Source: a virus. From it: 64,000 nt of DNA. The stretch covers positions 48,375-112,374 of IMG/VR virus record IMGVR_UViG_3300037140_000076. One strand, written 5' to 3'. Positions 11,949 through 48,701 of this stretch are shown piece after piece (position 1 is the first letter of the stretch; each line of letters opens with the position of its first letter). The position numbers and the translations under genes are program-made. Below the pieces are notes generated by a model, which was not told the DNA's origin, did not search any database, and saw only the letters and a list, made by a program, of their open reading frames with translations.

Positions 11949-11973
11949 AATACTTATTTCTAAGGTTTGTCAG

Positions 11974-12331
11974 TGGACTAGTCGGAATTCGAATCCGAGT
12001 CTTCAATACAAAAAATCTTACTTTTCTTTATAGGTTTAGGATAACGATTTAATCTTACTACCGTTCCAAAAGAATTTTCCTACCCTCCACCACTCGGTTT
12101 AGGTCCGAGAACCATGCTACACCAGCCATTTTCTGTTTCAAGGTATGACTACCCATGCATCAAGCTAATTCCAGTTCTTCACTGAAAACCGAAGCGAGTA
12201 TCGCTTCTCCTTCTGCAATACGTTCAGCTTTAGACTTTACGTTTGTTTGTTGCATATTTATTAAGGATGTTATATACTGCATCCACCTAAAATAAAACCT
12301 TTCAATACTGAATCAATAGCCTTTCTAGCCC
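11974..12331 (-). ncRNA. ssrA: tmRNA
   Basis: 5' GGGCUAG pairs with 3' CUAGUCC-A, including the G3:U70 Ala identity pair; T-arm UUCGAAU near the 3' end; 358 nt; internal ORF 12255-12160 MQQTNVKSKAERIAEGEAILASVFSEELELA*. Confidence 0.9.
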
Positions 12332-12526: not shown

Positions 12527-12687
12527 AAAAAAGTTAAAAAATAAGTCCCTTTCCCTTCACTATCCCAGGGTGGTTAATAAGGACTTATTTTTACGTACGC
12601 TGTTTTAGGCTACAGATACCTCATACGTAACCATTGCCGTTAGAATATAGACCGATTTATGATACTATACAACGGTTGGATTTTTCG

Positions 12688-12756
12688 AACATCCAAGAGG
12701 AATCGAACCCCTGCTTCACCCTACACGGGTGCGTCCTCCCACTAGACCATAGATGT
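12688..12756 (-). tRNA. tRNA-like RNA with a 5-nt anticodon loop (pseudo/decoy tRNA)
   Basis: Acceptor ACAUCUA/UGGAUGU, D arm, CACCC-GUGUA-GGGUG, T arm AGGGG-UUCGAUU-CCUCU. Confidence 0.65.
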
Positions 12757-24301: not shown

Positions 24302-26474
24302 ATGCTCAATAAGAACCTTTTAAATTTTACCCTGGTTGTTTTCTCATATGGTGCTATCTTATTGACAGTCTTATACTTAAAAGATAAATCGAAGAAATGA
24401 AAAAAATCCTGATTGATTTCACAACTGTTTTAAAAAAGAAAGATAGATTTACAGATCATGCCGGGGTTGAACATAAGATAAAAGAAGTAACGTATGCCCC
24501 CTCCAACGGGACGGTATATATAGAGACGACAGAAGGGAAGATGATTAACCTTACTAAAGCGTTGATTAACAAAGATATATTATGTCTACTCAAGAAATGA
24601 TTCGTTGGATACCTTTAGAAGAATATAAAATAATGCAACAATCTGAAGAGGAATGGAAAAAGATGAATTATAGAATATTCATGAGTACTTTTTGGGGTAT
24701 GGAAATACCTAAACCATTAATAAATAAAGAGTTATGATTAACACCCTTCTTTGTTTTTTAGGTATTCATAGATGGCATTCCGTTAGAAATGGACCTAAAA
24801 TCCCTTTTTCAAGATGTAGATATATTTTTTGTACTCGTTGCGGAAAACAAAAATAACACACTGATAAATAAAGACTTATGAACTTTGCAAAACTCTTCTC
24901 TATTGATGACGATACCCAGGTGCTTGTTAGGCTCGAAGATGGGTTTGATGAAACCACCGGAGAAGAAATTACAAACGTTACTCAAACAACTGAGTACAAC
25001 GGAGTTACAATGGAATGTTCTAAAGGATTCCTGGAAGTAAAAGACGCTGAAGAATATTTTAAAAAGTTCTCCCTGGCTCTTGCCATTACTTTTCATGAGG
25101 ATGCCCGGAAGGTTATTTTCGATATGGTGGAGGAAGGCTGATTTGGAATTGTGAAGGTTTTGTTATAATTTTATACCTATGCCTGAATTAACCTATGCCT
25201 TTCAAATCCTCACTGCAACTGATCTGATGGTCCTTCAAGACGATATGAACGATCTTGGTATATGTGGATACACAGCGGTTGGGGGAGTGACCTATTCCTT
25301 CTTTGATCCAAACAGCCCTAGTGGATTTACCTACGTCCAGGTTATGAAATTAATAATAAAGAACTTTTAACTTTTTGTTAACTTTAGATTGATTATATTC
25401 GCATTATGAAAGAACATAGATCAAAACAAATGGGACCTGGAGGCGGTGGATGGCTTTCAGACCTGGAAAGAGATCAACCTATAAAATCAGGAGCAACACC
25501 CCTTACATTACCAGGCACCACCTCAACAAGGTTTGAAGTTTTCTTTCAATTCAATGATGATGCACCGGTTAGGTTTGCAGAAACAAGAACAGGACTTAGG
25601 ATAGACCTAACTGAAGATGGTCAAGACGTTGAATGGAGGGATGGGGATAAGAGATTTAGAATTTTTTTAAAAAAGAAGACATGACAAAAATAAAACCAGA
25701 CGTCACCGAAACTAACCCATTCGTTATCTATCCCCCCGATTCCAATGTAATTTTAAATCTTCCAAAACCAAATTCTGTATCTAATTTTGAAAAGGATTTG
25801 CTTGAAAAGTTTAACGAATATGATGGTCCTAAAAGCACCCGTGGTAAAGTACCCGATGAAATTCAACCTCTTAAAGATAAAGAAAATATTTTTCAAGATA
25901 CCCATGCTATAAACAATTCAATGGTTTTGCAAAAATTAGGATTTGAAGAAAGATCAGCTACCCAATGGTATCACCCAGTTCTTGGAGATGATATGGAACA
26001 TAACTGGCTTCATTTTGATACTCAATATGATGATACTGAATCTATTGTACCAAAGATTTATAAAACAGGATTTGTACAAGGTCAGAAAAATATTCGGATG
26101 GGTATTAAAAAGGTACTCGATATTTAAAAACAACAATTACATGGCAGCTAAAAAAGAAACTAGAAAATCATTTTGTATTACCGCTAAGATTATTATCACA
26201 ACAAGTATTGAAGTTTATGCTAATACGTTTACTGAAGCTGTGGATTTATCAAGAGGTTTAGGAGTAGATAATTTTGTTGAAGTCATTGGTGATCACATTG
26301 ATAGTGAATTCGGCATAGAAGGTATTTCTGCTTTTCCGAATACCGCAACACTTTAATTATGTACGAAGACTTATTAAAGGACCCTCCCGACACTGAGGAA
26401 GATATTCCAGATATACTTCAACCCCCAGGCCCCGCTGTTCCGGTGGCTGGATTATGTTTTGCTGAAAGATTATA
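24302..26474 (+). CDS. cluster of small hypothetical genes (24302-24400, 24397-24600, 24878-25141, 25179-25370, 25406-25684, 25681-26127, ~26141-26356)
   Basis: ORF track plus manual translation; several have their own Bacteroidota-type promoters. Confidence 0.5.
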
Positions 26475-26543
26475 ACAAAACTCAGTGATAATTATCATTG
26501 GATTTAGTGATAAAAATAAAATTATAACAAAATTTTGTTATAA
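26470..26543. promoter_or_regulatory. three copies of the 22-bp palindromic operator TTAT(A/C)ACAAAATTTTGT(T/G)ATAA
   Basis: Perfect palindrome at 26522-26543 just upstream of -33 TTTG; degenerate copies at 26470 and 26492. Confidence 0.75.
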
Positions 26544-26545
26544 AA

Positions 26546-26577
26546 TTTGGTAGATTAAAAAATTCTTCTTAGGTTTG
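26546..26577 (+). promoter_or_regulatory. Bacteroidota sigma-A promoter (-33 TTTG, -7 TAGGTTTG)
   Basis: Matches TTTG ... TAnnTTTG. Confidence 0.7.
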
Positions 26578-26595
26578 TAGTCTAAATGATTTTTT

Positions 26596-26742
26596 ATGGT
26601 AGTAGGTATAATAATTGGTTTCGTTGCTGGCTTTGTAATTGGAGCACTTGTGTTCAGAAACAATACTACAAAAGCTAATGCCGTAATAGCAACTGTTCAG
26701 GCAGATACTGCAACCGTAGTAGCTGACGCTAAAAAAGTTTAA
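26596..26742 (+). CDS. small single-pass membrane protein (48 aa)
   Basis: MVVGIIIGFVAGFVIGALVFRNN... Confidence 0.6.
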   Translation: MVVGIIIGFVAGFVIGALVFRNNTTKANAVIATVQADTATVVADAKKV

Positions 26743-26773
26743 TCAAATGGGTGGAGACGCTTAAAATATTACA

Positions 26774-26851
26774 ATGCAACAATTTACAATGATAGTGGAT
26801 AATAGAATTAATGCCGGAGGCGAAAATCGTCTTTCAGGGATTCTATTGTAA
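26774..26851 (+). CDS. leader peptide 1 of tRNA array 1 (MQQFTMIVDNRINAGGENRLSGILL)
   Basis: A-rich TIR; codons 6-17 match all ten downstream tRNAs; overlaps the antiterminator strand. Confidence 0.8.
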   Translation: MQQFTMIVDNRINAGGENRLSGILL

Positions 26852-26876
26852 CATCATTAATAATATGTTAAACCTT

Positions 26877-26913
26877 TAGAACCCTGGATAATAAATCCAG
26901 GGTTTTTTATTTT
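26877..26913 (+). terminator. attenuator terminator 1
   Basis: AACCCTGGAT/ATCCAGGGTT stem plus T-run, directly before tRNA-Val. Confidence 0.85.
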
Positions 26914-26985
26914 AGACAATTAGCTCATCGGGAGAGCGGAGCCTTTACACGGCTTGCGTAGAGGGTTCAATTCCTTCATTGTCTA
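26914..26985 (+). tRNA. tRNA-Val(TAC)
   Basis: Cloverleaf; GAGCC-TT-TAC-AC-GGCTT. Confidence 0.88.
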
Positions 26986-27041
26986 CATAATGACCGTTAT
27001 AACGGACATTCTCCCCAGGAAATGACCGCTATAACAAACAT

Positions 27042-27112
27042 TTTCCTCTCGTTCAATGGAAGGACGACTGCCTTCTAAGCAGTGAATAAGTGTTCGACTC
27101 ACTTGGGGAAAA
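27042..27112 (+). tRNA. tRNA-Arg(TCT)
   Basis: ACTGC-CT-TCT-AA-GCAGT. Confidence 0.88.
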
Positions 27113-27117
27113 CATAA

Positions 27118-27191
27118 GGCTTGTTAGCTCAGTGGCCCAGAGCGGGACTTTGTTAAAGTTCGGGTCCTTGGTTCGAATCCAAGACGAGCCT
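27118..27191 (+). tRNA. tRNA-Asn(GTT)
   Basis: GGACT-TT-GTT-AA-AGTTC. Confidence 0.9.
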
Positions 27192-27238
27192 CAAAATTAA
27201 TTTGGATATGTCACAAACTTTATGTATATTGTGTCATA

Positions 27239-27640
27239 ATGAAAATTTGTACACGATGTAAAGATAAAAAAGAACTATCTGAGTTCTATAAAAGTCCAGG
27301 CAGTAAGGATGGTTATCGCATTTATTGTAAAACATGTTATAGTAAGTTACGAAAGAGGACATATAATTTTCAAAAAGCAAAGAAATTATTTTTAAAAAGT
27401 AAATACAAAATAACTTTAGAAGAATTGGAAGTTTTATTTTTAAAACAAAAGAAAAAATGTGCTATTTGTAATGAACCAAATGAAGAAGTGTCTACTAGAA
27501 GTGGGTTACATATAGACCATGATCATGTTACAGGAAAAGTCAGAGGTTTACTTTGTAAAAACTGTAATCAATTGATAGGCAATGCTAAAGATAATATAAA
27601 TATTTTAGAAAATAGTATAAAATATTTATTATGTTCTTAA
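27239..27640 (+). CDS. endonuclease VII-type HNH nuclease
   Basis: CAIC...LHIDHDHVTGKVRGLLCKNCN. Confidence 0.88.
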   Translation: MKICTRCKDKKELSEFYKSPGSKDGYRIYCKTCYSKLRKRTYNFQKAKKLFLKSKYKITLEELEVLFLKQKKKCAICNEPNEEVSTRSGLHIDHDHVTGKVRGLLCKNCNQLIGNAKDNINILENSIKYLLCS

Positions 27641-28437
27641 CATTCACAGAAGAAGGGCATTCGTATGAGTCAATTCCAGCCGTTTCCTGGACTTCTGTGA
27701 CTAAATTAATAGAAAGCTACTGCAATCCTTTTGATGAGGAGGATCAAGCTCTGAGGAGTTCACAGAATATGAATTCAAAATGGTTTGGGATGGACCCAGT
27801 GGAGATTATCAAACTCTGGAAGGCTGAAAACCTTCGTTCCACTGATGCCGGAACCTGGGTCCACAACAAATGGGAAAAAAATGTTAGCTCTTTAAAGCAC
27901 AAAGAGTGGGAAGGAAAGAAATTAAAAGTTTTTCCTGGAAAATGGGAAGGAGAAACTAAAATTGCACCGGCCCAGGAACTTGAAGAAGGGGTTTACCCTG
28001 AACATATTATATATAATGAAAATCTTCAGGTGTGTGGACAGGCTGATATTGTTAATGTTAGGGATGGTTTTGTAGATGTAATTGATTATAAGACTAGTAA
28101 GGAGATTGAGGACCACTCTTATGGATTCAAGTATGGAAATGCGAGTATGATGTTGGAACCGGTGAACCATTTAGAGGATTGCAACCTTTCTCATTATGTT
28201 CTTCAGCTTGGTATCTATATGAGGCTCATCCTGTTAAAGAATCCGGCTCTGAAACCTGGTAAACTGATCCTCATTCATGTAAAAATGGATATTAATGAGC
28301 TTGATCAATATGGATTTCCTATCCTAAAAAGGACAAAAGAAAACGGATATAAAATTAAAAGAACAAAAAATTATAATATAAAATACATTGAGAATGAAGT
28401 TCGTAGTGTATTAAAAGATCATTATTTAAAATTGTAG
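27631..28437 (+). CDS. PD-(D/E)XK exonuclease
   Basis: SVTKLI, GTWVH, PEH...CGQAD...IDYKT, YVLQLGIY. Confidence 0.8.
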   Translation: MFLTFTEEGHSYESIPAVSWTSVTKLIESYCNPFDEEDQALRSSQNMNSKWFGMDPVEIIKLWKAENLRSTDAGTWVHNKWEKNVSSLKHKEWEGKKLKVFPGKWEGETKIAPAQELEEGVYPEHIIYNENLQVCGQADIVNVRDGFVDVIDYKTSKEIEDHSYGFKYGNASMMLEPVNHLEDCNLSHYVLQLGIYMRLILLKNPALKPGKLILIHVKMDINELDQYGFPILKRTKENGYKIKRTKNYNIKYIENEVRSVLKDHYLKL

Positions 28438-28582
28438 GGTGGCGAAATTGGCAGACGCAACCGCTTGTCTCGCGGTCGTGGATAAGGAAATAGATAGTAG
28501 ATAGACGGTTGACCAGCAATGAATTAACTTCTTTTGTCTCCTGTTGAATCCCCACTTAATGGTTCGAATCCATTTTCTACAG
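28433..28582 (+). ncRNA. tRNA-like RNA with ~81-nt variable region (loop centre GTC)
   Basis: Acceptor TGTAGGG/TTCTACA, Leu-type D loop, ACCGC-TTGTCTC-GCGGT, T arm AATGG-TTCGAAT-CCATT. Confidence 0.7.
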
Positions 28583-28702
28583 CAATTGATCAGTATGTTG
28601 CAGATAGAATCTGATCTGGCCCTACGCACTGCAAAGCGTTGAGGGAGCGCGTCCGGGATAAGTAGACCTGGTAAGACTACGCTAGGAAAAAGTCTTTTAT
28701 AT

Positions 28703-28777
28703 TGCGGGATAGAGTAAATGGATAACTCGAAGGTCTCATAAGCCTTGTCTATGTCGGATCGTACCCGGCTCCCGCAA
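28703..28777 (+). tRNA. tRNA-Met(CAT)
   Basis: TGCGGGA/TCCCGCA; AAGGT-CT-CAT-AA-GCCTT. Confidence 0.85.
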
Positions 28778-28778
28778 C

Positions 28779-28886
28779 GGTGGTGTCTTGAACGTAGTCC
28801 TGGGAAACAACAAGGGAAGTACAACTAACGGGTTACTGAAAGGGCTTTGTAGTTCAAGAATTAAACAGGTAAAGCTGGCCGCTACT
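28779..28886 (+). ncRNA. unknown ~108-nt structured RNA
   Basis: GGTGGTG/CGCTACT closing stem; TCTTGAAC/GTTCAAGA helix; fills the gap between two tRNAs. Confidence 0.5.
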
Positions 28887-28888
28887 TT

Positions 28889-28962
28889 GCGCCATACGCA
28901 TTCCGGTAGTGTGCCTGGCTTCCAACCAGGATGAGTCGGTTCGATTCCGACATGACGCACCA
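28889..28962 (+). tRNA. tRNA-Gly(TCC)
   Basis: CCTGG-CT-TCC-AA-CCAGG; CCA encoded. Confidence 0.88.
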
Positions 28963-29042
28963 GGACAAGACGGAGGTTCGAATCCTCCCGGCTATGTATC
29001 CGTAATTGGGTGACGCAGTAGTTTAGTGGTTAGAATATGTCC
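28963..29042 (+). ncRNA. circularly permuted tRNA-like (YrlA-type) RNA
   Basis: GGACA/TGTCC closing stem; T arm GGAGG-TTCGAAT-CCTCC comes before the D arm TAGTTTAGTGGTTAGAATA. Confidence 0.7.
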
Positions 29043-29045
29043 AAT

Positions 29046-29117
29046 GCTCCTTTCGTCTACTGGCTAGGACATCACTCTTTCCAAGTGATTAAGACAGATC
29101 GAAACTGTCAGGGAGTA
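29046..29117 (+). tRNA. tRNA-Glu(TTC)
   Basis: TCACT-CT-TTC-CA-AGTGA. Confidence 0.85.
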
Positions 29118-29123
29118 CAATAT

Positions 29124-29198
29124 GGTACATTAGGGGAGTCCGGAGTCCCTGCCTCACTGTCTATGAGGAGATCATCGGTTCAAATCCGATATGTACTG
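29124..29198 (+). tRNA. tRNA-Asp(GTC)
   Basis: CCTCA-CT-GTC-TA-TGAGG. Confidence 0.88.
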
Positions 29199-29255
29199 CA
29201 AGATGGAACGTTTAGTACGTCTGAACACGAAATAATGGTTCCCCATCTTTTCTAT

Positions 29256-29330
29256 ATTCGGATAACTCAGTCTGGTCAGAGGGCGACTCTTATAAGGTCG
29301 CAGTCAGTGGTTCAAATCCACTTCCGAATA
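29256..29330 (+). tRNA. tRNA-Ile(TAT)
   Basis: CGACT-CT-TAT-AA-GGTCG. Confidence 0.88.
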
Positions 29331-29402
29331 CTGGTTCGTATAAAGGCACGAATTGTTCGAAAGATTCGTGTAAATACGTAATTTGCAAATTGCAAATTAT
29401 AC

Positions 29403-29476
29403 TGACCTATGGCGCAGCTTGGTAGCGCAGCACTCTGATAAGGTGAAGGTCCCTGGTTCAAATCCAGGTGGGTCAA
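29403..29476 (+). tRNA. tRNA-Ile(GAT)
   Basis: CACT-CT-GAT-AA-GGTG. Confidence 0.9.
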
Positions 29477-29519
29477 CTCTGTTCATATTTTTTCTCTGTT
29501 CACGAAAAGTGAACAACCT

Positions 29520-29590
29520 GGGCCAGATCCCGAAGGCAGGGCATCTCGCTTGCACCGAGAATGAAGCGGGTTCGATTCCCCATGTGTCCA
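29520..29590 (+). tRNA. tRNA-Ala(TGC), divergent
   Basis: TCTCG-CT-TGC-AC-CGAGA; G3:U70 present; mismatches in acceptor and T stems. Confidence 0.7.
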
Positions 29591-29631
29591 CTTTTTTCCC
29601 AAATTTGGAAATGTGAAAAATTTTCACTATA

Positions 29632-30159
29632 TTGAATTCTTCACATCCAAATTTAAATAATATGTTAAAGTTCATCCTAGACAACCCAGAGAAGACACTT
29701 TTCGGTAAGATTAGAAACATTGGTTTTGTATTTGCACTGGAATTAATTTACTTAAGTATCATTGTTTTTTTATTGAAACAACTAGATCCCTTTGATCTAT
29801 ATACTCTTATGCATCAATATAGTTTACCACATGTTATAGACGCTAATGCTATTGGGATATTTTTCTTTGCTTGTATTTGGGCACCCCTATGGGAAGAAGC
29901 GGCTTTCAGGTATGCTCCTATAACGATTGCCAAGAACTTTGGACCTCAATTTTTGTTCCCGGTTATAATAATTAGTAGTGTTTTATTTGGTTGGGGTCAT
30001 GGATCTGGACCTGTTAGTCTTCTTATTCAGGGAGTTGGGGGATTCTTGTTTTCCCTGCTTTATATTAAAAATGGTTTTAGTTATAAATCTTCAGTAACTG
30101 CCCACTTCCTTTGGAACCTTTCTCTTATGTTCCTCCTTCCTGTTTTAATAGCAAATTAA
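29632..30159 (+). CDS. CPBP/Abi (CAAX-II) intramembrane protease
   Basis: EEAAFR, FGWGH, H..WN; multiple TM helices; likely start at 29662. Confidence 0.8.
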   Translation: MNSSHPNLNNMLKFILDNPEKTLFGKIRNIGFVFALELIYLSIIVFLLKQLDPFDLYTLMHQYSLPHVIDANAIGIFFFACIWAPLWEEAAFRYAPITIAKNFGPQFLFPVIIISSVLFGWGHGSGPVSLLIQGVGGFLFSLLYIKNGFSYKSSVTAHFLWNLSLMFLLPVLIAN

Positions 30160-33832: not shown

Positions 33833-33901
33833 ATGAAACATATCAATTCATATTATTCACTGAGTCTACTCTTATCGTCTTACGATACGGACCTGGGATA
33901 A
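33833..33901 (+). CDS. leader peptide 2 of tRNA array 2 (MKHINSYYSLSLLLSSYDTDLG)
   Basis: 12 consecutive Ser/Tyr/Leu codons upstream of Leu/Ser/Tyr tRNAs. Confidence 0.85.
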   Translation: MKHINSYYSLSLLLSSYDTDLG

Positions 33902-34190: not shown

Positions 34191-34270
34191 CCCTCTGTGG
34201 CTTATAGAAATAGGTACACTTAACCGACTTAAAATCGGAGCTTGTCATGGTTCGAATCCATGCAGGGGGA
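34191..34270 (+). tRNA. tRNA-Leu(TAA), enlarged D loop, short variable arm
   Basis: CCGA-CT-TAA-AA-TCGG. Confidence 0.8.
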
Positions 34271-34275
34271 CATAC

Positions 34276-34362
34276 GGAAGGCCCCAGTTGACTGAGGTAC
34301 ACGGTCCTGAACACCGCTAGGAGGCTAATACCCTTGTAAGAGTTGGACTCTCTTGCTTTCCG
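34276..34362 (+). tRNA. tRNA-Ser(TGA)
   Basis: CGGT-CC-TGA-AC-ACCG; long V arm; G73. Confidence 0.8.
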
Positions 34363-34480
34363 CTTTATATCTTTTAACATATAAAATCAGTAATATATTA
34401 CCGATTATATCTAATAACGTATAATAAGGTAGAATATTTTGCAACAATCGGCAATTTATTACCGATTTTGCCGAAAGTTT

Positions 34481-34564
34481 GGAAAGTTAATTAGCAAGAG
34501 CTAACCCTCCCCGCTAAGGAGTGGGACCGGGAAACTGGTTGTGGTTCGTGTCCACAACTTTCCG
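34481..34564 (+). tRNA. tRNA-Ser(GCT)
   Basis: CTCC-CC-GCT-AA-GGAG; long V arm; G73. Confidence 0.82.
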
Positions 34565-34612
34565 CAAGAGGAAACATTTGGAAGTTTCCTCTTTATTTCG
34601 TATGTTTGTAAA

Positions 34613-35059
34613 ATGAAAAAGATATGTTCAAAATGCAATATTGAAAAAGAAGTACAAGATTTCAATAAACGCACAAACAGTAAAGACGGATATGATCCAA
34701 GATGTAGAACTTGTACAAAAGAACGAGATGTTTTAAGATATACTAAAAATCCCAAACTTTTTAAAGAAAGGGCAAAAGTTAAAAACACTTTTATAAGAGA
34801 TAGAAACAGACAATTTTTAATTGAATATTTAATTGATAAATCATGTATTGATTGTGGAGAAACCGATGCTGTTGTATTGGAGTTCGATCATATAGAACCT
34901 TCAACAAAAATTGATTGTATTTCAGAAATGATTCCACGATCAAGTATTGAAAATATTAAAACTGAATTAAATAAATGTGAAATAAGATGTGCAAATTGTC
35001 ATAGAAGAAAAACAGCTAAACAATTTGGCTGGAAAAGAAAACACCTGGAATTATGTTAA
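34613..35059 (+). CDS. HNH endonuclease
   Basis: KICSKC..CRTC; CIDCGE...LEFDH...CANCHRRKT; start MKKI 4 nt after TATGTTTG. Confidence 0.85.
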   Translation: MKKICSKCNIEKEVQDFNKRTNSKDGYDPRCRTCTKERDVLRYTKNPKLFKERAKVKNTFIRDRNRQFLIEYLIDKSCIDCGETDAVVLEFDHIEPSTKIDCISEMIPRSSIENIKTELNKCEIRCANCHRRKTAKQFGWKRKHLELC

Positions 35060-35158: not shown

Positions 35159-35213
35159 TTATAACTGAATTTTGTTATAAATTTGGAAATTTGAAAAAGT
35201 ATTATTAAGTTTG
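35159..35213 (+). promoter_or_regulatory. 22-bp palindromic operator plus promoter of array 3 (-33 TTTG, -7 TAAGTTTG)
   Basis: TTATAACTGAATTTTGTTATAA followed by ATTTGG ... TAAGTTTG. Confidence 0.72.
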
Positions 35214-35224
35214 CAGTTAAGATT

Positions 35225-35317
35225 ATGAAACAGACTATCAACACGCGATTTTTTTGGCATCAACCGACCCCTCAAGGTCCAAGGGCTAAAGTTATGCGTG
35301 ATACAGATATAGGTTAA
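35225..35317 (+). CDS. leader peptide 3 of tRNA array 3 (MKQTINTRFFWHQPTPQGPRAKVMRDTDIG)
   Basis: Codons 7-19 TRFFWHQPTPQGP cover all seven amino acids of the downstream tRNAs. Confidence 0.85.
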   Translation: MKQTINTRFFWHQPTPQGPRAKVMRDTDIG

Positions 35318-47816: not shown

Positions 47817-48701
47817 ATGGAATCTAAGATTATCATTAAACAGGTAGCTAATCCTGATAACCCACAGTTATCAGTAAAGTACATTGGATCAAAAGAATAC
47901 GCTACTCCAAAACTAGGTAAAGACGGAAAAATAATTACAGGGTTTGATGAAAACTCTTATGAACTTTTAAGTGCTCAGGATAAGGACGATGAGACAGGCA
48001 AGGAAGCTAAAAAGAAACAAAACGCTATAAAAAAACTTAGGGAAGAACTTGAAAGACTTTTAAGTGTTTCGCTTACTACGGATTCTTCTTTTTGGAATGA
48101 ATTCTTTATAGTTCTTGAAGATGAAAGGGAACTTGATCCTTTGAATCCAAGAGATATTCTTCATGAGAAGTTTTTATTAGCCAATAAATATGTGGCTCCT
48201 TCTTTTGAAGCCGTTACAACTGATCCTGAATATTTTAATTGTTTATTTTATATTCATAGAGAAAAAGAAGAAACAGCAAAGAAGGCCCAGAGTGAACGTA
48301 AACTTGATAAAGCTACTTCAATTCTTTATGCTCTTAGTGAGGAAAATCCGAATAAGTTACAGCAAGTTAGTGCTGATATATTTGGTTATGATGCTCATGA
48401 GATTTCACCTGATACTGCTTATATTAAACTTAAAGAGTATTTAGAAAATTCTGATGAAACACTTCAGAAACAAAACATAGCTCGTTTCTTATTGACAGTT
48501 CAAAAGACTCCAGAAGAAATAGCAATAAAAAAGATTTTTGATAAAGCTTTAAAAAAGAGATTTGTTACTTCCAAAGGTAATGTGTTCCGTAGAGGAGATC
48601 TTATTTATGGAAATAATTATGATGAAGCTCTGGAGTTTTTAGGATCACCGGAAAACTCTGGTGAATTGATTTCCTTGCAGAAGCAAACGGATAAAGCCTA
48701 A
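47817..48701 (+). CDS. conserved crAss-like structural-module protein
   Basis: Position after MCP; LDPLNPRD. Confidence 0.6.
   Translation: MESKIIIKQVANPDNPQLSVKYIGSKEYATPKLGKDGKIITGFDENSYELLSAQDKDDETGKEAKKKQNAIKKLREELERLLSVSLTTDSSFWNEFFIVLEDERELDPLNPRDILHEKFLLANKYVAPSFEAVTTDPEYFNCLFYIHREKEETAKKAQSERKLDKATSILYALSEENPNKLQQVSADIFGYDAHEISPDTAYIKLKEYLENSDETLQKQNIARFLLTVQKTPEEIAIKKIFDKALKKRFVTSKGNVFRRGDLIYGNNYDEALEFLGSPENSGELISLQKQTDKA

Follow-up and report, generated by a model that had tools for sequence, protein, structure and literature searches.

The pheM leader of pheST, which encodes phenylalanyl-tRNA synthetase in Escherichia coli, acts by attenuation, and in this way the decoder system is supplied more abundantly when decoding is slow. 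Current explanations for the carriage of tRNA genes by phages are codon bias, host tRNA loss and escape from anticodon nucleases and, to our knowledge, how the expression of phage tRNA genes is timed is largely unknown. The nearest published case to the locus described here is the trn operon of Anabaena sp. PCC 7120, a long tRNA array with adjoining homing endonuclease genes that is induced under translational stress (PMC8421152) and is controlled at its promoter by the RHH repressor TrcR (PMC10272220). Here we describe a leader cassette located in front of the first of three tRNA arrays (array 1) in 64,000 nucleotides of viral DNA (IMG/VR record IMGVR_UViG_3300037140_000076, positions 48,375 to 112,374). 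This stretch, hereafter called the window, is the last part of the 112,374-bp single-contig genome of a crAss-like phage. As judged from its codons and modelled folds, the cassette quite probably functions as a multivalent leader-peptide transcription attenuator with feedback on tRNA supply. The leader and the tRNA genes that follow it are listed below.

26774-26851, + strand: leader open reading frame (ORF) of 25 codons, with ATG at 26774 and the stop codon TAA at 26849-26851, encoding the peptide MQQFTMIVDNRINAGGENRLSGILL.
26789-26824, + strand: regulatory run, codons 6-17, which is also region 1, the 5' strand of the protector hairpin.
26914-26986, + strand: tRNA-Val(UAC), proximal part of array 1 (ARAGORN and Rfam).
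27042-27113, + strand: tRNA-Arg(UCU), proximal part (ARAGORN and Rfam).
27118-27192, + strand: tRNA-Asn(GUU), proximal part (ARAGORN and Rfam).
28703-28778, + strand: tRNA-Met(CAU), distal part.
28889-28962, + strand: tRNA-Gly(UCC), distal part.
29046-29118, + strand: tRNA-Glu(UUC), distal part.
29124-29199, + strand: tRNA-Asp(GUC), distal part.
29256-29331, + strand: tRNA-Ile(UAU), distal part.
29403-29477, + strand: tRNA-Ile(GAU), distal part.
29521-29591, + strand: weak tRNA-Ala(UGC), distal part.

The run reads ATG ATA GTG GAT AAT AGA ATT AAT GCC GGA GGC GAA, and re-reading the sequence placed the ORF and codons 6-17 exactly where a preliminary description had located them. The same description held that these codons cover all 10 tRNAs of the array. 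This is correct for the nine firm tRNAs (Val(tac), Arg(tct), Asn(gtt), Met(cat), Gly(tcc), Glu(ttc), Asp(gtc), Ile(tat) and Ile(gat)), all of which are represented under standard wobble, with 10 of the 12 codons read by tRNAs of array 1. The caveats are that tRNA-Ala(UGC) is weak and that GCC and GGC need four-way wobble. Such a four-way reading of these two codons is plausible because all family-box tRNAs of the phage carry U34.

To judge coincidence, all stop-free segments of 12 codons were scanned in six frames of the whole 112-kb genome (n = 114,540). There is only one segment that covers all nine firm tRNAs, and it is the leader-1 run. Eight of the nine are covered by 18 segments, three of which overlap this run. 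Similarly, MIVDNRINAGGENR is the sole run of array-1 amino acids in six frames that holds the full set, and a Monte Carlo estimate with the phage's own composition gives P of about 3e-5 per leader-sized peptide. One might still propose that the locus is an ordinary terminator of a small upstream gene combined with a chance ORF, wherein the tRNAs match the run simply by matching the commonest codons of the phage. Indeed, AAT, ATT, GAA, GAT, ATA and AGA are common codons in this 35% G+C genome, and the terminator does follow a protein gene. However, the single hit in the scan was obtained against an empirical null from the same genome with the same codon usage, and we regard coincidence as very improbable.

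The other two arrays point in the same direction. There are about 27 tRNA genes and a tmRNA gene in the window, and the majority are found in three blocks on the + strand; the genome (G000) carries tRNAs for 19 amino acids and none for Lys. Leader 2 (33833-33901, SYYSLSLLLSSY) is the longest Leu/Ser/Tyr run of the genome, and leader 3 (35225-35317, TRFFWHQPTPQ) is its longest F/H/P/Q/R/T/W run and the sole complete one, neither of which is expected of chance ORFs. Each is located immediately 5' of the matching tRNA block. The numbers of leader codons that can be decoded by arrays 1, 2 and 3 are 13, 3 and 5 for leader 1, 5, 11 and 2 for leader 2, and 7, 0 and 13 for leader 3, and thus the three-by-three matrix of leaders and arrays is diagonal. 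The Arg codons follow this pattern, with AGA in the leader-1 run (array 1 has Arg(UCU)) and CGA in the leader-3 run (array 3 has Arg(ACG)).

The RNA of leader 1 includes the following structural elements.

26788-26858, + strand: protector or possible pause hairpin 1:2, about -23 to -24.6 kcal/mol, in both minimum free energy (MFE) and centroid folds.
26832-26849, + strand: core of region 2, UUUCAGGGAUUCUAUUGU, codons 20-26, which pairs with region 1 or with the terminator 5' arm (RNAduplex and masked folds).
26877-26889, + strand: region 3, the terminator 5' arm, UAGAACCCUGGAU.
26878-26913, + strand: intrinsic terminator with a 12-bp stem, a 5-nt loop (AAUAA) and the U-tract UUUUUUAUUUU, -17.4 kcal/mol.

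The strands earlier proposed to form alternative structures, AATAGAAT (26801-08), ATTCTATT (26840-47), CAGGGATTCTA (26835-45) and TAGAACCCTG (26877-86), are all present at these coordinates. The terminator is present as well, and its stem (26878-26906) is slightly wider than the 26880-26904 first reported. This stem is G+C-based and ends 7 nt before tRNA-Val (26914), and the U-tract ends 1 nt before it. No promoter fits between the terminator and tRNA-Val, and therefore the array can be reached only by read-through. The MFE structure of 26774-26913 comprises hairpin 1:2 and the terminator, with -42 kcal/mol and z = -5.9 relative to 200 shuffles.

Alternative states were folded by masking the A site plus 12 nt to represent the ribosome and by truncating the transcript as it emerges. 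In the free RNA, hairpin 1:2 persists and the terminator is formed subsequently. When the ribosome is masked on codons 10-14, region 2 (UUUCAGGG.AUUCUA, 26832-26845) pairs with UAGAACCCUGGA (26877-26888), and this antiterminator forms once 26877-26888 emerges, before arm 4 is transcribed. When the ribosome is at the stop codon, region 2 is masked and the terminator forms. In these models, the predicted fraction of the terminator 5' arm that is paired upstream is 0.25 for the free RNA, 0.83-0.92 for a stall at the start or the middle of the run, and 0.25 for a ribosome at the stop codon. The preliminary description suggested that stalling on the run would free the antiterminator strand, and the computed folds agree in that masking codons 6-14 flips the structure to the antiterminator. 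In addition, the antiterminator competes energetically with the terminator (-13.4 to -16.6 kcal/mol with codons 10-14 masked, versus -17.4 kcal/mol).

Pairing between regions 2 and 3 is stronger than in shuffled sequences. The 2:3 duplex (26832-26849 with 26877-26889) has a dG of -15.8 (z -3.3, p 0.005, RNAduplex versus dinucleotide shuffles). When the array terminators of five phages were compared, 2:3 complementarity was below the shuffle mean in 10 of 10 (z -1.35 to -5.0), with p-values of 0.001-0.025 in eight, and of 0.067 and 0.092 in the other two. Region 2 is always located within the 3' part of the ORF, near the stop codon, in these ten cases. There is no upstream complement to the terminator arm in any of the seven control terminators, which are in the window and do not precede tRNAs (z -1.7 to +1.0). 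This again disfavours an ordinary terminator with a chance ORF.

Thus, the following mechanism can be proposed for leader 1. RNA polymerase would start at about 26546-26577 and transcribe a 48-codon gene, followed by the 25-codon leader. If the leader is untranslated, region 1 would pair with region 2, the terminator at 26878-26906 would form, and transcription would stop 1-7 nt before tRNA-Val. A ribosome that reaches the stop codon at 26849 would cover region 2 and again permit termination. When a ribosome is slowed on any of codons 6-17, it would hold region 1, and region 2 would pair with the emerging terminator 5' arm. This 2:3 pairing would block the terminator, and array 1 would be transcribed. 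Because the run holds one codon per downstream tRNA, what the leader senses is most likely how much of those decoders is available from host and phage combined. Such an arrangement would constitute negative feedback, wherein few such tRNAs lead to read-through and enough of them lead to termination. A shortage of decoders could stem from mismatched codon usage, from decay of host tRNAs during infection or from tRNA-cleaving defence nucleases. In this mechanism, translation of the leader ORF, its coupling to RNA polymerase and the physiological signal are inferred.

Relatives of the phage permit a comparison of these features. The genome encodes a large terminase (TerL), a portal, a major head protein and a DNA polymerase. 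The terminase is closest to those of Leptolyngbya phage Lbo-JY46 (41%), Cellulophaga phages phi4:1 and phi17:2, and crAss-like gut phages, and many further TerL relatives are found on contigs of 110-125 kb. Six relatives were compared.

L001: IMG/VR contig, TerL identity 98%.
L010: metagenome contig, TerL identity 64%.
L006: IMG/VR contig, TerL identity 56%.
Lbo-JY46: cultured Leptolyngbya phage (L066, PP438436.1), TerL identity 41%.
L008: IMG/VR contig, TerL identity 39%.
phi4:1: cultured Cellulophaga phage (L067, NC_021788.1), TerL identity 28%.

All six have a short ORF and a terminator 5' of each array, and retention of the cassette down to 28% TerL identity is difficult to explain by coincidence. 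Arrays 1-3 are present in L006, but the contig is cut off 67 nt short of tRNA-Val and leader 1 lies outside the sequence. A phage nucleotide search with 26400-29700 gave only tRNA-sized matches. An exact-pattern scan of IMG/VR with the leader core returned L001 only, and its loosened form gave 50 chance matches, none of which is located before a tRNA. One further leader-1 homologue, that of L010, came from a metagenome scan.

In L001, codons 1-16 of leader 1 are identical to those of the window, beyond which there are one additional in-frame codon, a number of substitutions and a stop codon further downstream (MQQFTMIVDNRINAGGNEKSAPGNLLFDTRG). The terminator also differs, and region 2 (GCCCCAGGG) and the terminator arm (CCCUGGGGC) have changed together. 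Leader 1 of L010 is MQTTRIIDNRNNAEVTIKCGSGFLLYDTDAC, and here GGCUCUGGG pairs with CCCGGAGCC. When the 2:3 helices of the window, L001 and L010 are aligned on their common GGG/CCC core, three of nine aligned pairs differ on both sides as judged by eye (C-G to U-A twice and C-G to G-C). These helices were compared by RNAduplex and by eye because MAFFT, when applied to the 3' halves of the three leader-1 sequences, displaces the terminator arm by one base. The leader start ATG-CAA is conserved in L010 and the indel of L001 is in frame, features that give indirect support to the presumed translation of the leader. Neither the second ATG nor the alternative-frame ATG is conserved. Accordingly, two other candidates were rejected: the second ATG (codon 6) as the start, which is ATC in L010, and an alternative-frame ORF at 26811-26879, whose ATG is absent in L010 and which runs through the terminator in L001.

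The codon content of the leaders also tracks the content of the arrays. In L001, L010 and Lbo-JY46, the arrays are headed by tRNA-Lys (Lys(UUU) and Lys(CUU) head array 1 of L001) and the leaders contain AAA. There is no tRNA-Lys anywhere in the window, and the homologous leader codon is AAT. Among the array-1 loci, only that of Lbo-JY46 includes tRNA-Cys, and six Cys codons are found in its leader (MINSIDIRNIDIVCAEGVNKCSCGLSFMCDGGCGCN). The array Pro-Asp-Phe-Gln of L008 follows the leader ...FFPCIFQDQPD. In phi4:1, the leader QRLHLQELEQP is located 5' of Pro, Glu, Gln, His, Leu, Leu and Arg, and the leader TKTGITVIDKTKGARAY is located 5' of Ala, Lys, Ile, Gly, Met, Asp, Thr, Val, Arg, Met and Tyr. 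Another phi4:1 candidate, gp076, lies before Ser, Trp and Phe and carries W, F and S codons; it was not counted because no clear terminator accompanies it.

Conceivably, the same switch responds to general translation capacity, such as amino-acid starvation, ribosome shortage or the stage of infection, rather than to particular tRNAs, and the codon match merely ensures that the leader is translated like an average phage mRNA. The structures and their geometry cannot tell what slows the ribosome, and one codon per tRNA offers weak specificity. In addition, the free RNA already folds as the antiterminator in several relatives, so that loss of translation alone would give read-through. However, the three leaders in one genome have nearly disjoint codon sets, each matching its own array, and leader codons change with array content among the relatives (Lys, Cys and Asp). 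A general sensor needs neither this match nor this co-change, and extra tRNA would not relieve amino-acid starvation. For these reasons a sensor of general capacity seems unlikely, and an attenuator that reads the decoders of its own array is preferred. More broadly, it is probable that the crAss-related clade that includes phi4:1 and Lbo-JY46 runs a tRNA homeostat for each array. The leader would serve as a codon barcode of its block, such that a shortage of any one of its decoders switches on that block and tRNA build-up shuts it off.

Leaders 2 and 3 of the window have MK..IN starts in common. A C-terminal motif directly before the stop codon is also shared among leaders, in the forms YDTDLG, RDTDIG, YDTDAC and FDTRG (window 33884-33898 and 35300-35314, L010 1380-1397, L001 9383-9397). 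These common starts and ends make the cassettes look paralogous. Relative to L010, leader 1 of the window lost the C-terminal motif via a change from TAT to TAA. In phi4:1, the 'hypothetical protein' gp075 (L067 15352-15471, - strand) is annotated across the promoter, and a leader that begins at the GTG is the better reading of it.

Several elements upstream of leader 1, and one within array 1, may be relevant to transcription.

26522-26543, + strand: perfect palindrome TTATAAC-N8-GTTATAA, a candidate operator recognised from the sequence, identical in L001.
26546-26577, + strand: promoter-like motif of the Bacteroidota type, -33 TTTGG and -7 TAGGTTTG, kept in L001 and L010.
26596-26742, + strand: 48-codon gene for a small hydrophobic protein, the first cistron (ORF list).
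About 27201-27231, + strand: near-consensus promoter motif before the nuclease genes within array 1, recognised by eye.

The motif at 26546-26577 is likely the start of a transcript with the small gene, leader 1 and array 1. The pattern TTTGG-N16-22-TAnnTTTG has four matches in the window, and they are found before the 48-codon gene, leader 2, leader 3 and an HNH gene inside array 2. The palindrome is immediately 5' of the -33 box, with a near copy (35159-35180) before leader 3 and none before leader 2. Words that resemble GTTATAAC recur in the 55-nt Val-Arg spacer (26987-27041). The 48-codon gene has a homologue in L001 with an in-frame 21-nt deletion and a longer homologue 5' of leader 1 in L010, and its product has no PHROG match. 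The order of promoter, small hydrophobic protein, leader, terminator and array is identical in L001 and L010. A scan for the -33 motif gave more than 100 loci, 12 of which have tRNAs within 450 nt, and there is no leader-1 homologue among these 12.

Alternatively, the hairpins might act without translation, with the ORF not serving as a sensor. A phage antitermination factor or a phage RNA polymerase could override the terminator at a defined time, or the hairpins might be elements for pre-tRNA processing or stability. For part of their programme, crAss-like phages rely on RNA polymerases of their own, which is compatible with this view, and the palindrome beside the promoter suggests additional control by a protein. 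Temporal gating would also be consistent with terminators located immediately 5' of tRNA arrays. However, this explanation does not account for the genome-unique codon runs, the conserved frame and start codon with an in-frame indel, the tracking of array content by codon content, or the position of region 2 in the 3' part of the ORF near the stop codon. We therefore find action independent of translation decidedly unlikely and retain leader-peptide attenuation as the preferred explanation.

The codon run, the folds, the 2:3 pairing and the relatives all came out as predicted for an attenuator. Nevertheless, several observations weigh against this interpretation. The run offers a single codon per tRNA, in contrast to the tandem repeats of classical leaders. 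Neither GCC nor GGC is a standard cognate of the respective array-1 tRNA, Ala(UGC) or Gly(UCC). The tRNA-Ala(UGC) gene is called by ARAGORN at relaxed thresholds only and has no Rfam match, and it has a poor D arm and mismatched stems. It is possibly a weak, decayed copy; a syntenic tRNA-Ala(UGC) is the last member of array 1 in L001, L010, L006 and Lbo-JY46. Furthermore, the leaders of L010 and Lbo-JY46 have a Glu codon, and that of L010 also a Val codon, for which there is no detected tRNA, and the L010 leader includes Cys codons with no Cys tRNA in the locus.

Other such points concern expression. At full length, the terminator state is favoured over the antiterminator state by about 3 kcal/mol, and control by the switch must thus be kinetic. 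The classical values for the E. coli trp leader likewise give the full-length terminator state as the more stable one. Leader 1 is a second cistron and lacks a Shine-Dalgarno sequence, as would be expected for hosts of the Bacteroidota type. Finally, the promoter motif at about 27201-27231 may allow the distal tRNAs (Met to Ala) to bypass attenuator 1. This weakens the claim of one switch for all ten genes but not the interpretation as a switch.

Two nuclease genes split array 1 at 27239-28437.

27239-27640, + strand: endonuclease VII family gene, a homing-type nuclease (Pfam).
27631-28437, + strand: PD-(D/E)XK nuclease gene (Pfam).

The endonuclease VII gene is missing from L001, and array 1 of Lbo-JY46 likewise holds a homing endonuclease. 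An HNH-like homing-type nuclease gene is also located inside array 2 (34614-35059, + strand), with its own -33/-7 motif at 34577. Directly 3' of the PD-(D/E)XK gene, the sequence at 28433-28583 (+ strand) resembles a tRNA in which the anticodon loop carries GUC and a very long segment is inserted. In intron mode, ARAGORN assigns Glu(ttc) and a 70-nt intron to it, probably incorrectly. A rearranged tRNA fragment (28963-29042, + strand), located between Gly(UCC) and Glu, includes a T arm followed by a piece resembling a D arm. A tRNA-Gly(GCC) is found at this position in L006, and the fragment may be a remnant of a tRNA that once read the leader codon GGC.

The tRNA-Ile(UAU) found in the window (29256-29331) and in L001 is replaced by a second CAU tRNA in L010 (4443-4517) and Lbo-JY46 (L066 4563-4639), which is probably an Ile tRNA that needs lysidine. 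ATA codons are present in every version of leader 1. The second 'tRNA-Cys' of Lbo-JY46 (L066 2168-2241) is Val(tac) according to ARAGORN. In the array 2 region of the window, class II tRNAs at 34191-34271, 34275-34363 and about 34477-34565 (+ strand) were missed or miscalled by the tools. The first has the anticodon loop CUUAAAA and corresponds to Leu(UAA), and it is called 'Stop(tta)' by ARAGORN at relaxed settings. Ser(UGA) and Ser(GCU) were recognised by eye only. Elsewhere in the window, the tmRNA gene (11973-12331, - strand) encodes the tag peptide VKSKAERIAEGEAILASVFSEELELA and is adjoined on the same strand by tRNA-Thr(UGU) (12687-12756).

If the proposed mechanism is true, this would be the first case of leader-peptide attenuation of tRNA genes and the first known viral sensor that measures the host tRNA pool. 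A leader that lists the downstream tRNAs would link decoding speed to tRNA synthesis in a direct and self-correcting manner. It would extend attenuation of the trp, his and ilv type to non-coding products, and would offer synthetic biology a natural sensor of translation speed with multiple inputs. Since the same cassettes are found in two cultured phages, the idea is directly testable. Leader sequences may also predict which array tRNAs matter and which decay, with Ala(UGC) and the lost Gly(GCC) as the examples here.

Comparison with described systems places the cassette nearest to leader-peptide attenuators. None of the Rfam leader families (Trp, His, Leu, Thr, Phe and others) matches at E-values up to 1. 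The sole leader-type match is to the greA leader at 36.7 bits, versus a gathering threshold of 60, and reflects a generic resemblance to a hairpin plus terminator. There is likewise no Rfam match to the T-box riboswitch at either the gathering or the E-value threshold. T-box RNAs are similar in that a terminator/antiterminator switch reads a specific tRNA state and controls translation-related genes. However, they bind uncharged tRNA via a specifier codon and the T-box sequence and have no ORF, whereas here a ribosome would read the codons.

As with the phage cassette, attenuation by the pheM leader peptide controls a component of the translation apparatus. The pheM system differs in that it regulates a synthetase and responds to one amino acid, and its loop is closed by charging capacity and not by the tRNA itself. 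The Anabaena trn operon resembles array 1 in that an accessory set of tRNA genes is off by default and is induced once translation is impaired. It differs in being controlled by a repressor, and the terms 'leader peptide', 'attenuation' and 'terminator' are absent from PMC8421152 and PMC10272220. Leader-peptide attenuation of tRNA genes, operons or arrays, or of phage tRNAs, is not described in the full-text literature covered, a scope that leaves most subscription journals outside. Two other phage contigs of the Bacteroidota type (L077 and L115) carry the same -33/-7 motif and similar tRNA sets but no leader cassette; their first tRNA is located about 48 nt after the motif begins, with neither an ORF nor a terminator between. 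Because the motif can thus stand directly before tRNAs, the leader cassette appears to be an added layer of control and not a by-product of array architecture.

The closest structural counterparts are the enterobacterial leaders ilvGMEDA (Ile/Leu/Val), thr (Thr/Ile), trpL, hisL, leuL and pheL. Like these, the phage cassette has a short ORF with its regulatory codons on region 1, mutually exclusive 1:2, 2:3 and 3:4 pairings, and an intrinsic terminator just before the regulated genes. The parallel extends to a ribosome that masks region 2 when at the stop codon, and to a terminator that is stronger than the antiterminator, with kinetic control. In terms of its ORF and codons, terminator, antiterminator and geometry, the cassette thus has every structural feature of the class that could be examined. 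Unlike the enterobacterial leaders, in which codons for one to three amino acids are repeated, it has about one codon each for 9-10 tRNAs. It is also carried by a phage, as a second cistron, and there are three such elements per genome, each with its own codon set. The regulated genes are tRNAs rather than genes for amino-acid biosynthesis or a synthetase, a difference that has no bearing on the mechanism. No described member of the class is known to regulate tRNA genes, and these would be new as targets of an attenuator.

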